Shown piece after piece: positions 15,335-20,000 of a stretch of DNA of 20,000 nucleotides. A program made the position numbers and the translations under genes. The stretch's first letter is position 1; every line of letters starts with the position of its first letter. This DNA is from Vicugna vicugna (taxonomy: Eukaryota): positions 61,711 through 81,710 of the forward strand of contig PNXW01000517.1 of the NCBI GenBank assembly GCA_013265495.1, read 5' to 3'. The notes below the pieces were generated by a model. The model saw only the letters and a list, made by a program, of their open reading frames with translations, made no database searches and had not been told where the DNA came from.

Positions 15335-15615
15335 TCTGGGCCTGTCCACTCCAAGGCGAAGAGATACTGGGAGTCTGGTTGCAGGCAAATTCAAAAGAAA
15401 GCATCCTTTAGGTCAAGCACTGTGAACTAGTTTGCGTTCTCTGGGATTTGGGTCAATATAGGGTATGGACCCGGGAGAATTAGGTAAACTGGGACCACTG
15501 CCTCATTAACTGCCTTCAGGTCTTGGACAAAGAACTGACTTTTCTTTTTTTTTTTTTTTATGGCAGAATGGGGATAATATATGGAGTTTTGCAGGGTCAG
15601 AACAGCCCATATTTT
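15335..15615 (-). pseudogene. pol: ERV1 reverse transcriptase remnant, 3' part (downstream of the ATMIN insertion)
   Basis: Minus strand: KYGLF*PCKTPYIIPILP*KK...FVQDLKAVNEAVVPVYLILPGPYPILTQIPENAN*FTVLDLKDAFF*ICLQPDSQYLFALEW, the gamma-like RT motifs VQDL and LDLKDAFF. Confidence 0.9.
15595..15615. repeat. Left target-site duplication of the ATMIN retrocopy
   Basis: GGTCAGAACAGCCCATATTTT matches 19512-19532 GGTCAGAAGAGCCCGTATTTT at 19/21. Confidence 0.95.
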
Positions 15616-15684
15616 TTTTTTGTTTGTTTGTTTGTTTTGTTTTGTTTTGTTTTTTTTGGTTTTTTTTTAGAATTCTCACTTCTC

Positions 15685-15690
15685 TTTAAT
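15685..15690 (-). terminator. Polyadenylation signal ATTAAA of the ATMIN retrocopy
   Basis: TTTAAT on the plus strand, ~16 nt from the start of the poly(A) tail. Confidence 0.85.
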
Positions 15691-15838
15691 CACTGAGTTT
15701 AAGCTTTTACAAATAATAGAACAATTCAGGTAACTCAGGTTTTGAGGGGAAACAGTTCTTACTTACACATGAAGAACTATTACATGCTCCATTTTTCTGT
15801 AAATAACTCTACTGGCTGGGTTAACAAACGTCACAGAA

Positions 15839-15861
15839 ACACACACACACACACACACACA
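15839..15861. repeat. (CA)n microsatellite in the ATMIN 3' UTR copy
   Basis: Directly visible, about 11 units. Confidence 0.9.
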
Positions 15862-17646
15862 ATTTGTAAAGCCATAGATCACTGCATATATATTTACAAA
15901 AAGCCATAAACAAACATGCATTTCTCCTTTGCTAGGAGAACTTAAATTAAATGTTTGAACATTAAGGCAGTGATGATTCTAAAACATAATGAAATTCTAA
16001 GTTAAGGCTTTATGTTTGCTTTGAAACCCATATTCGTAGGCAACTGTGACCAAAGCATACTTTAATCTCAGGTTGAGTTCATCTGTCCAGGGTATGCTAT
16101 TTCTCCATATCAACAATCCTTCCACGGGATCAGAATTAGTAGCAACACCACTGATTTATTTTAATGAATTATTAGTCTCCTCCTTAGGTTTTATTTTGAG
16201 GATTTAGCCTCCAGCAGCATAAGCATGTGCCAAAGAAGGAACAGAGCATTTTTTGGGGTAAACTTAGAAAAATTTACAGGCTTCCCAGATTTTTACTTGC
16301 CTGAAAGTTGGCCAAAAATCAAGAATTCTGGATCTCCTAAATACAGAAAACCCTAAAAGCACACTTGACCACACACCCATCTCAAAACATAGATGTTATT
16401 ACTGAAGCAATCGTCTTCACCTCATTTTCTTTGAAGACTGGTATTACCCTCTCTAAAAAAATAAATAAAGCAACAAAATGCAGAATACCGTATCTTAGAT
16501 GGATCTATTCTATAACTGCTATCCTCAAGGCACAAATACTATCCTTGCTAGGCCAATGTGTTTCCTCATTTAAGGGAAAAATGAGAGGTGGATGAAAAGA
16601 AGATTCACTTTTAAGATAACTGTTGATTGCACTCTTGCCCTATTCAGCTTATGCAAAGTCTTGATGTTTAGGAAGGGATGTCCTTTTCCCTTAATGTTAT
16701 TTATTTATTTACTCACTTATTTAACACTTAGAGTGACAAAATTCAGCTAGTGGGCGTACTCTGGGGAGAGGCTCTGGAGCACCACCCTGGCTGTAGGGAG
16801 GAGGCGGCGGGATGCTCGTAGGACACACTCCAGTGTGAGCCAACAGGAGTGATTCCACAGCCCAGCATTTCCATAGCTGGGGGGACTTACTGTCATTTAG
16901 ACGAGAAGGATCACTATTTACACTAAGTGCTGGCTGCTACTTCTTGAAGCAATAATTTTACAGCAACATGGCTTGTGAGGAAGTACTGTAGTTACGTTGG
17001 TATCAATAACAGTTCATGTACAGAAAGGATGGCATTGACTATATGGAAACTGTCTCAAAAGCTAAAGACAACTGTAGTATTCCTTTGTGTCTTCAAATCA
17101 GGGAAGAATAAGATGACAAAGCAGATGAAGCTGCAGGCAACATGAGTCAAACCATCGAAGCGTTGGTGTTTCAATCTGATGGCGCAGTATCAGATCTCTT
17201 TAGATATTATCAGGAAACAGGAATTTCTAACAAGCACTGTCAAAAATATTTTAGGTGCAATTTAAGTCATACTTTGACTAAAATGTTTTGAAGATTTGAA
17301 AAGTTTGTACCCTAGTCCTGGTGAGCTTGGCTTCAGCTAAATGGCTAGATGGGTTTTAAAGGTGTGAAATACATTTTTTTTTAAAGAAGGGAAGACTACA
17401 CTGAAAGGGCAAATGTAGGCAACACAAAAACAATCATTTTTAGATCAACATCTTACACTTTATGATACACTCACAAATTTTTACACAAATTTCATGTTTA
17501 CAAGTACAAAAGGCAAAGAACCTCAAAGAATCGAAGTAACTGTATCATCAACTACATTCAATAGAGTTAATACTGTTGTCCCCACTCTCCACTTTCTAAA
17601 TCCAGAAGGGAACTGTAAATGCCACCCCACAATGTGGACTCCACTT

Positions 17647-19461
17647 TTAGAAGTTGGACACTGTGTGTAGTTCTGCACACGTCTGGGTTTCAACAGAGCT
17701 GAACTGAGATTCCATTGTGTTCCAGGCCAAGTCAGCTAGAAGAAAGTCGTCCATTGCTGTTTGAGTTTCATTGCTGGTGAAGAACAAGCTCCCCAAAGTT
17801 TCAAAGCCAGAATTCATGGTCTGTGTTTCTGTGCTGTTCAACTGAACTTTGCTTTCTAAAGCAGGTATGTTTTTAGCAGTGGAGATTCCTTCGGTTTGGG
17901 TCTCTGTGTCAGAGGAATCAGTACTCATGGAAAAGCTGGAGTGTTTCAGAATACTTCCCAGAGGCAGATGAGGGCTACTGTCTAAAAAGAAGTTTAAGTC
18001 CGTCTGTGTCTGTGTGTCAAACATTTCAAGGCCTAAGAAGTTAGAATTTCCCCTATAACCATAGGACTGGGCAGAGGTGTCTGCAAGTAAGAAGTCAGTT
18101 TGGGTCTCTATGTCCAGTGATTCCAGGACTGGCTCAGTGGTCATGGTGCTAAGCTCACTCTCTTCAGTTTGAGTCTGGATATTTGAGGCTGAAAAGAACT
18201 CTTCAATATCAAAATCAATTGCGGGATTCTGGGTTGGGCCAGATGGGAGCTGGCTGTCAGGTCCAGAATTTGTGTCAGACAAAAGACTACGATTGTCCAG
18301 TGTCTGACCAGGCAGATTACTCGACAAGATATTTTCTAGATCACTTAATAAATCTATGGTTTGGGTCTGATTATCTGTCATGTTCTGTGAAGGAAGCAGA
18401 CTATTCTGTGCACTGAAGTTTATAACTGGTGCGGATTTCTCAATATCTTGATGTAAAGTCTTAGGGTGGTTCTGAGGTAACAAACCATGAGTCACGGTCT
18501 CTGTTACCAAGCTGCTGCTTATAATACTGTCTGCAGAAACGCCGTATGATGAATGGACACTCTCAAAAATATCTCCACACATTACAGCTTGGTCCATCTG
18601 CACTCGATCATCTGTTGGACTTTGCATCCCACTGGTTTGAGTTTCTCTAGAGATCCCACCTGACTGGAAACAGGCATCTATAAACGCATCAGTCTGAGCA
18701 GCAATAGATGAGGTTACCTTAGAACTTGGAGGTGTTGTCAGAGTCTGCTTTCTGGCAGTAGAGTTGCAAGAGTCTTCAAAAGAAGCCACCAGCTTTATTT
18801 CTGAAGTTTCCAGTTCTTGAGTATCTGGTCTTGGGGTTTGTTGGCTGCTCAGTGATTCGACGGTCTTACTGGACAACTTCTGGTTGTGCAGGCAGTTTTC
18901 CATTTTCCTTTTCTTACTAGGTGGATCCCTGTGTTCTGCAGGGATCTCATGGCCAGTTCGGTAGACGTGGGACTGCAGTGCAGTTCTGCTGGCATAGGGA
19001 CAGCCGCACGTGCACTGGAAGGTCTTGCCACAGTCTTCCGCATGTCTTCTTAAGTCCCATTCAGTGCCGTAGGAGTTGCTGCACTTGCTGCATGTATGTT
19101 TCTTTTCAGCATGCATTTTCATAAAGTGCTGTTTTACGAGAGAAAATTGAGAAAATGGTCTGTCAGGGCCTCGAGGGCATCCTTCAATTGGACAACAGTA
19201 GCATTTCGGTACAGTTTTCAAATCTCTTCTTATTGTTGGATTCACTCTGCCATCCTGCAGGCGGTGGCTCTTGACCAGGTGCATGTTGAGCGCGGGGCTG
19301 GTGGGCAGGATCTTGCCGCAGCCGCGCACCGTGCACAGGATGTTGGTTCGCACCGCCCGGGACAGCTCGCTCACCGATGGCTGGATGAGCTCCCGGGCCG
19401 GCGGCGCCGGACCCGCCGGCTGCTGCCTCGCAGCTGCGAGTCGCGGCCGGCAGCCCCTCAA
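17647..19461 (-). CDS. ATMIN: Uninterrupted 604-codon ATMIN-derived ORF: 4 zinc fingers, NLS, TQT-motif cluster; no ATG at its start, first Met at codon 60 (19284)
   Basis: Near-identical to recalled human ATMIN (ELIQPSVSELSRAVRTNILC..., PPSKKRK, ...LAWNTMESQFSSVETQT..HTVSNF*). Identity as ATMIN is secure; whether it is translated is unknown. Confidence 0.55.
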   Translation of the reverse strand: MRGCRPRLAAARQQPAGPAPPARELIQPSVSELSRAVRTNILCTVRGCGKILPTSPALNMHLVKSHRLQDGRVNPTIRRDLKTVPKCYCCPIEGCPRGPDRPFSQFSLVKQHFMKMHAEKKHTCSKCSNSYGTEWDLRRHAEDCGKTFQCTCGCPYASRTALQSHVYRTGHEIPAEHRDPPSKKRKMENCLHNQKLSSKTVESLSSQQTPRPDTQELETSEIKLVASFEDSCNSTARKQTLTTPPSSKVTSSIAAQTDAFIDACFQSGGISRETQTSGMQSPTDDRVQMDQAVMCGDIFESVHSSYGVSADSIISSSLVTETVTHGLLPQNHPKTLHQDIEKSAPVINFSAQNSLLPSQNMTDNQTQTIDLLSDLENILSSNLPGQTLDNRSLLSDTNSGPDSQLPSGPTQNPAIDFDIEEFFSASNIQTQTEESELSTMTTEPVLESLDIETQTDFLLADTSAQSYGYRGNSNFLGLEMFDTQTQTDLNFFLDSSPHLPLGSILKHSSFSMSTDSSDTETQTEGISTAKNIPALESKVQLNSTETQTMNSGFETLGSLFFTSNETQTAMDDFLLADLAWNTMESQFSSVETQTCAELHTVSNF

Positions 19462-19511
19462 CCGACCGCCGCCTCGGAGGCCACCAAGGCTCCCGCACGG
19501 CAGTCGGCCGA
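19260..19511. promoter_or_regulatory. CpG-rich segment derived from ATMIN exon 1
   Basis: Very GC-rich with many intact CpGs, against an AT-rich, CpG-poor background. Confidence 0.5.
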
Positions 19512-19532
19512 GGTCAGAAGAGCCCGTATTTT
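19512..19532. repeat. Right target-site duplication plus L1 endonuclease site
   Basis: GGTCAGAAGAGCCCGTATTTT followed by AA gives TTTT/AA, the L1 ORF2p nicking consensus. Confidence 0.95.
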
Positions 19533-19859: not shown

Positions 19860-20000
19860 GGGGATGGATACACCTCAAGTGGTAGAGTGCCTATTTAGCA
19901 TGCATGAGGTCCGGAGTTCAATCTCAAGTATCGCCTCTAAAGTCAATCAATCAACTTACCCTCCCAACAAAAAATATAATAAGTTAAGAAAAAAAAAAAA
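19860..20000 (+). mobile_element. tRNA-derived SINE, camelid Vic-1-like
   Basis: GGGGATGGATACACCTCAAGTGGTAGAGTGCCTATTTAGCATGCATGAGGTCCGGAGTTCAATC (A and B boxes), then an A-rich tail to the window end. Confidence 0.85.

Follow-up and report, generated by a model that had tools for sequence, protein, structure and literature searches.

The window analysed here is a stretch of 20,000 nucleotides (nt) from an 81.7-kb contig of Vicugna vicugna (G000:C270:61711-81710), and its minus strand between 19514 and 15668 contains an intronless copy of ATMIN, the gene of the ATM interactor (ATMIN/ASCIZ), located about 470 nt from the contig end. The body of the retrocopy comprises ~28 nt of 5′ untranslated region (UTR), the coding sequence and ~1.98 kb of 3′ UTR. 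It is collinear with exons 1-4 of the intron-bearing ATMIN gene, which was found on a separate contig of the same genome (C10843, about 5012300-5021974; four exons, 98-100% match to the window), and 3 of the 3 introns are gone. Over 3,847 nt, the retrocopy differs from this parent by 24 substitutions and 3 indel events, which amounts to ~0.62% (99.4% identity). In addition to the introns, the copy lacks 531 nt of the large last exon, and the parental sequence at both ends of this absent segment carries the splice signals of an exitron, an intron-like segment inside a coding exon.

The parental exon borders were read directly. Exon 1 ends with the donor border ...CTGCAG/gtgagc (a slash marks a splice border or junction), exon 2 of 126 nt spans ttttgcag/GATGGC...AAACAG/gtattt, exon 3 of 200 nt spans ctgcctag/CACTTT...CACAG/gtaaac, and the large last exon 4 starts at the acceptor border tttccag/GGATCC.... 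On the minus strand of the window, exon 1 is joined to exon 2 at 19254-19255 (intron 1 removed), exon 2 to exon 3 at 19128-19129 (intron 2 removed) and exon 3 to exon 4 at 18928-18929, where intron 3, with its parental borders CACAG/gtaaac ... tttccag/GGATCC, is removed. Homology to the parent extends from 19514 to 15668, beyond which the parent continues with CCTTTTTTGTG and the window with a degenerate A-rich tail (15616-15667), a poly(A) remnant with interspersed C. The hexamer ATTAAA, a variant of the polyadenylation signal, was read directly at 15685-15690, ~17 nt ahead of the end of parental homology. The copy is flanked by target-site duplications of 21 nt each with an A-run at the start, the 5′ one being AAAATACGGGCTCTTCTGACC (19512-19532) and the 3′ one AAAATATGGGCTGTTCTGACC (15595-15615); they agree at 19 of 21 positions, with a CpG-type C/T difference as one of the two mismatches, and the last 3 nt (ACC) of the 5′ duplication are equally possible as the first bases of the mRNA. 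The absent introns, the poly(A) tail after its signal and the target-site duplications are the features of an L1-type processed retrocopy, and the disabled coding capacity is the one by which a copy is labelled a pseudogene. Minus-strand 15668-19514 is a young L1-mediated processed pseudogene of ATMIN (ASCIZ).

The last exon of the copy is interrupted by a loss at 18724-18725 of the minus strand, which reads ...ctgacaacacctccaag/ttctaaggtaacc... (CCA AG/T TCT) with g at 18725 and t at 18724. The absent segment corresponds to positions 1708-2238 of the parental locus (L005; C10843:5020362-5020892); it is 531 nt long, equal to 177 codons (3 x 177 nt), stop-free and wholly within exon 4. Further upstream, 242-369 nt before the junction, the parent has A at C10843:5019297 and T at 5019424, both of which are C in the retrocopy. 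An earlier note on this DNA had put the junction at 18725/18724 with the frame preserved, and both the minus strand and an open frame of 627 codons plus stop (17647-19530, minus strand) agree with it; the frame stays open across the junction as ...KQTLTTPPSSKVTSS... (also given as ...ARKQTLTTPPSSKVTSSIAAQ...). The in-frame nature of the loss and its position inside the large last exon, which the note had also claimed, were borne out, whereas its estimate of about 176 residues is corrected to 177 codons, which encode RYPQKLLLPK...SVHTQTFLP, or R287-P463 of an 823-amino-acid (aa) orthologue. In the parent, the region reads ...acacctccaag/GTACCCtcagaag...(531 nt)...catactcaaacttttttgcccAG/ttctaaggtaacc, so that the missing segment extends from GTACCC to TTTTTTGCCCAG. 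Its donor side is CCAAG/GTACCC and its acceptor side the pyrimidine-rich ACTTTTTTGCCCAG/TTCT, where pyrimidines make up 10 of the 14 bases ahead of the acceptor (tract TTTTTTGCCC). The note had predicted from the copy alone that the parent would carry an upstream AG/GTAY and a pyrimidine-rich acceptor; the parental arginine codon is AGG and not AGA, and the acceptor agrees with the prediction nearly letter for letter. The alignment to the last exon of the same genome, which the note had proposed as a check, gave a segment that starts with GT, ends with AG and is retained by the parent. When the copy was used in a protein search (590 significant matches, with mammalian ATM interactor proteins on top, the best 120 of which were aligned with the query to give 121 sequences), 94 of the 121 aligned proteins kept the segment, and its conservation in them indicates a loss in the window copy and no gain in the parent. 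A direct repeat of only 2 nt (AG) is present at the junction and allows three equivalent placements of the deletion. The segment lies within a protein-coding exon, is coding if retained and has GT...AG ends, as exitrons do in the definition of Marquez et al. 2015. The coexistence of spliced and retained mRNA forms, which the definition also includes, may be indicated indirectly by the X1/X2 isoform models and by the retrocopy.

Exactly the same junction, TP/PSSKV, was found in 4 of the best 120 of the 590 matches. These are Tursiops truncatus isoform X2 (XP_019796223.1; 653 aa), a Sus scrofa model (A0A8D1VBI4; 545 aa) and two Camelus dromedarius models (KAB1274498.1 and KAB1274499.1; 545 and 503 aa). 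A further carrier, found through the protein clusters, is Camelus ferus isoform X2 (XP_032342727.1; 644 aa), which has the full N-terminus and the same junction; its UniRef entry is one of the dromedary clusters, which spans two Camelus taxa, and the junction is therefore present in four protein clusters and five proteins. The other best-120 matches either keep at least 150 residues of the segment (94 proteins) or have different partial gaps (22 proteins), and when the search was scored on the 80 residues around the junction, the same four proteins ranked first among the best 120 of 158 matches. Among 22 shorter fragment proteins, none had the junction, and those on the acceptor side continue from exitron sequence. 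The 503-aa dromedary model (P0036 in the alignment) also lacks exactly exon 2 (42 residues, 126 nt), which makes it a model of an intron-bearing gene and not of a retrocopy. Furthermore, the T in ILPTSP and the S in SLSSQQ are common to the retrocopy and the parent of its own genome, where Camelus and the other aligned mammals have N. These two derived residues, shared by retrocopy and parent and absent in Camelus, indicate that the retrocopy is younger than the split from Camelus, and for that reason it is not a possible source of the Camelus X2 models. The known predicted ATMIN X2 proteins of Camelus ferus and Tursiops and the related models are like the window copy in having the junction ...TP/PSSKVTSS and lacking the same 177 residues; they differ in belonging to an intron-bearing gene with the N-terminus intact (X2) or cut at Met83, whereas the window copy is intronless, disabled and at another locus. 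The isoform had been called unannotated in the earlier note, which the X2 models of Camelus ferus and Tursiops and the models of dromedary and pig contradict.

The retrocopying of an exitron-spliced ATMIN mRNA very probably explains these observations and is the best explanation available. The template would be a parental mRNA that had lost its three ordinary introns by splicing and, in addition, the 531-nt exitron of the large last exon, with AAG/GTACCC as the donor and ACTTTTTTGCCCAG/T as the acceptor. This mRNA would have been polyadenylated at the proximal ATTAAA, ~2 kb past the stop codon, then reverse transcribed and inserted at an A-rich target, giving rise to the 21-nt target-site duplication. 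The junction itself would have been made by splicing and not by reverse transcriptase or DNA deletion, and the event would have taken place in the germline; because the copy was inherited, a camelid ancestor would have had the exitron-spliced mRNA in its germline or in cells of the early embryo. The short form encoded by it would keep the four zinc fingers and 10 of the 11 TQT (LC8/DYNLL1) motifs while 177 linker residues would be gone.

Several points weigh against this explanation. The consensus of splice donors is MAG/GTRAGT, and the ATMIN donor is weak, agreeing with it at positions -2 to +3 only. The junction is rare among ATMIN proteins, and its four clusters are all from Cetartiodactyla among the best 120 matches. 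The X2 and related models are computational predictions, and any support that they draw from cDNA may hold reverse-transcription artefacts of the kind described in PMC8240250. A search of sequencing runs with a 120-nt stretch surrounding the junction drew on no more than 8 sampled words, of which one run contained all, 2 runs a fraction of 0.75 and 17 runs a fraction of 0.63; none of the runs listed for the junction was RNA-labelled, and with 8-word sampling this is no evidence either way. A template jump by the L1 reverse transcriptase is also formally possible, given the 2-nt AG microhomology.

This last point belongs to the rival that survives best, although we consider it unlikely. It holds that the template was a full-length mRNA, that the 531 nt were lost by a jump of the L1 reverse transcriptase or by a later deletion at CCAAG / CCCAG microhomology, and that the GT..AG ends are coincidental. 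An AG repeat of 2 nt, or an imperfect CC-AG repeat, is indeed present at both ends of the segment, and exitron-like deletions are known to come from reverse transcriptases. Such exitron mimics were named falsitrons by Schulz et al. 2021 (PMC8240250), who selected them for the absence of canonical GU-AG ends; most of them (35 of 57) have flanking direct repeats, which are 3-16 nt long, and the CD19 example lies at the base of a hairpin. The ATMIN junction resembles them as an internal exon deletion in a reverse-transcription product and differs from them in its GT..AG ends with a pyrimidine tract, in a repeat below the ≥4 nt that flags an artefact there and in having no predicted hairpin. To the last point, the exitron was folded as RNA with 30-nt flanks and windows of ±20 nt were taken at its ends; no pairs of the minimum free energy structure were found between the ends, and the summed pair probability was 0.14. 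Slippage of reverse transcription at a hairpin was accordingly left without support by the fold, and with a 2-nt repeat and no hairpin the hallmarks of reverse-transcription slippage products are missing. The microhomology or template-switching alternative offered in the earlier note turned out to be weak on these same two grounds.

The coincidence of signals that a deletion would require was measured over every distinct deletion of 300-800 nt that the available exon 4 sequence allows, 429,458 in total. Those which could be written as GT..AG numbered 2,681 (0.62%), those with at least 10 of 14 pyrimidines upstream in addition numbered 346 (0.08%), and those also divisible by three numbered 112, so that only 0.026% of random exon deletions would look like the observed one. 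The signals at the junction exceed chance expectation. The same retrocopy provides an internal contrast in a second deletion at 19466-19467 (minus strand), which removes 94 nt of GC-rich parental exon 1 (about 1350-1441 of L010), is out of frame, has no GT..AG ends and is flanked by GGCGG-type repeats; splice signals are absent from it, and it was probably caused by slippage or a later deletion. It also counts in favour of the deletion rival, since it is a non-splice internal deletion in this very copy, as does an older ATMIN copy on contig C11790 with a deletion of ~1.06 kb and non-GT/AG ends, from which it is evident that such copies do suffer deletions. Against it stands, in addition to the signals, the identical junction in gene models of four other species, which are unable to carry this retrocopy.

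A functional retrogene, producing a short ASCIZ protein of 545 aa from Met83, is far less probable. The 627-codon frame is open, with its first in-frame ATG at codon 83 giving a 545-codon reading frame, and the four ASCIZ zinc-finger Pfam families match it. The former start codon at 19485-19487 (minus strand) is, however, TTG in place of the parental ATG, and the 94-nt deletion puts the frame out relative to it. The claim of the earlier note that the copy is short by 43 N-terminal residues only is thereby replaced by a mutated start codon and a separate out-of-frame deletion at 19466/19467. Codon 83 sits inside the first zinc finger, which a start at Met83 would truncate. The coding changes on the retrocopy side are four non-synonymous (I95R, K102R, F110C and K146T) and one synonymous, the four falling at residues that do not vary among the other aligned mammals; at 0.6% divergence, chance would be expected to leave the frame open, and no promoter was brought along, only ~28 nt of 5′ UTR having been copied. 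The decay of the retrocopy fits neutrality and suggests a non-functional copy. The weakest rival, contamination of the assembly by cDNA or transcript without any genomic insertion, could appeal to the position near the end of a small scaffold and to 99.4% identity with the parent, and it is scarcely credible in view of the non-ATMIN genomic flanks on both sides, the 21-nt target-site duplication, the decayed A-tail and the 24 substitutions, own indels and mutated start codon, which are unexpected in a cDNA contaminant from the same animal.

If the exitron-spliced mRNA is accepted as the template, the short form it encodes can be compared with what is known of ASCIZ. The 177-residue segment has no Pfam domain and contains one TQT (position 458), one VQT and one SQT, leaving 10 of the 11 TQT motifs. 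A loss of a few LC8/DYNLL1 motifs had been supposed in the earlier note; this is corrected to a single TQT and one each of the other two types. Human ASCIZ is reported to have 11 functional TQT sites and extra SQT/VQT sites, and its LC8-binding domain was cloned as residues 362-823 (PMC5963919). According to the same paper, transcriptional activity is tuned by the number of available motifs, or of LC8 dimers, on the disordered tail of ASCIZ (PMC5963919). In the short form, the linker that separates the zinc fingers from the LC8 array would thus be reduced and the first sites trimmed, with functional consequences that may follow from that model. A literature search found no paper on the ASCIZ core domain together with DYNLL1.

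The segment also resembles the exitrons of other genes. In the study of Marquez et al. 2015 (PMC4484396), exitrons are reported to have weaker splice sites, to lie in long host exons, to be enriched for lengths divisible by three, for disordered regions and for short linear motifs, and to be most numerous in testis. The ATMIN segment likewise lies in a long coding exon, has GT..AG ends and a weak donor, is stop-free and divisible by three, and has short linear motifs and no Pfam domain; its splicing, as a difference, is putative and documented here by a DNA fossil and by predicted isoforms. A literature search found no paper that ties ATMIN to exitrons or describes exitron-derived retrocopies; the exitron tables in the supplement to Marquez et al., where ATMIN may be listed, were outside its scope. 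The idea of reading splice variants from retrocopies is older. Processed pseudogenes were reportedly used as records of splice variants by Shemesh et al. in 2006; the ATMIN copy is similar in keeping the exon structure of an isoform reverse transcribed in the germline and differs in that its event is intra-exonic and involves neither exon skipping nor an alternative splice site.

On a wider scale, it is conceivable, though we hold it only tentatively and think it rather doubtful, that ATMIN/ASCIZ has a regulated, germline-active exitron kept at least across Cetartiodactyla (camel, pig and dolphin), which would bring the zinc fingers 177 residues nearer to the LC8-binding array and remove the first TQT. 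If this were so, the short ASCIZ would retune the ASCIZ-DYNLL1 feedback loop. A natural isoform without the 177 linker residues and the first TQT would also be a ready variant with which the LC8-number model could be tested. The retrocopy itself would be evidence, free of sequencing-library artefacts, for an mRNA with the exact junction in the germline-contributing cells of a camelid. Its value is limited, as RefSeq already contains a prediction of the isoform, the copy itself is dead and the reading of splice variants from fossil retrocopies is an established idea; the case is neat but ordinary.

The same linker shows other gaps elsewhere. Among the 121 aligned sequences, 17 are bird ATMIN models, mostly named isoform X2, without other parts of the linker (the proteins concerned are among P0093-P0121, P0141 and P0142). 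Their junctions are DNQGSV/NFVPAAAW in 14, DNQGSV/VSLPISV in 2 (cranes) and LAHLPV/SQVSLPIS in 1 (goose), and Chinchilla X2 has yet another junction in the same linker. The region looks like a hotspot either of intra-exonic splicing or of model artefacts, and should the regulated exitron be real, linker-length tuning by exitron splicing could recur in amniotes, given these different bird X2 junctions.

Two more ATMIN copies, both much older, were found in the genome. The one on C11790 (L003, 37520020-37521053; ~72% identity) lacks the ~1.06 kb around the exitron region mentioned above, and as the parental sequence at the borders of that deletion is not GT..AG, the copy was set aside as a witness of the junction. 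The one on C9522 (L008/L012, 12991354-12993128; ~68-70% identity) has the exitron sequence and is accordingly derived from a full-length form. Exitron DNA was found elsewhere in the genome only in the C9522 copy, and neither of the two has the junction, which the earlier note had suggested looking for in other ATMIN retrocopies. With these two, at least three ATMIN retrocopying events have occurred in the history of this lineage, and primate and sloth proteins named 'ATM interactor-like' hint at ATMIN retrocopying in other mammals too.

The parental gene has irregularities of its own. Its last exon contains a 4-nt tandem duplication, TTTA, at 2510-2513 of L005 (C10843:5021164-5021167; corresponding to window 18454 and 18422-18441), and two substitutions (E to K and I to R) lie near it, all three within ~35 nt. 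Taken literally, the sequence would read ...HPKTLFTSRY* and most of the LC8-binding tail would be lost; the conserved state at this site is seen in the retrocopy and in the Camelus proteins. The anomaly may stem from an error of assembly, from a heterozygous allele or from mis-assembly between the two 99%-identical copies. A run of N, either an assembly gap or a withheld stretch, is located at 1150-1165 of L010, ~160 nt upstream of the parental start codon, and on account of it the parental promoter is incomplete in the available sequence. In the window, just upstream of the retrocopy insertion, a fragment of a tRNA-like short interspersed nuclear element at 19861-19929 adjoins a T-run at the end of the contig. 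A copy next to the C9522 ATMIN pseudogene (L008 158-225) matches it at 78% identity, and the fragment represents ordinary repeat content.

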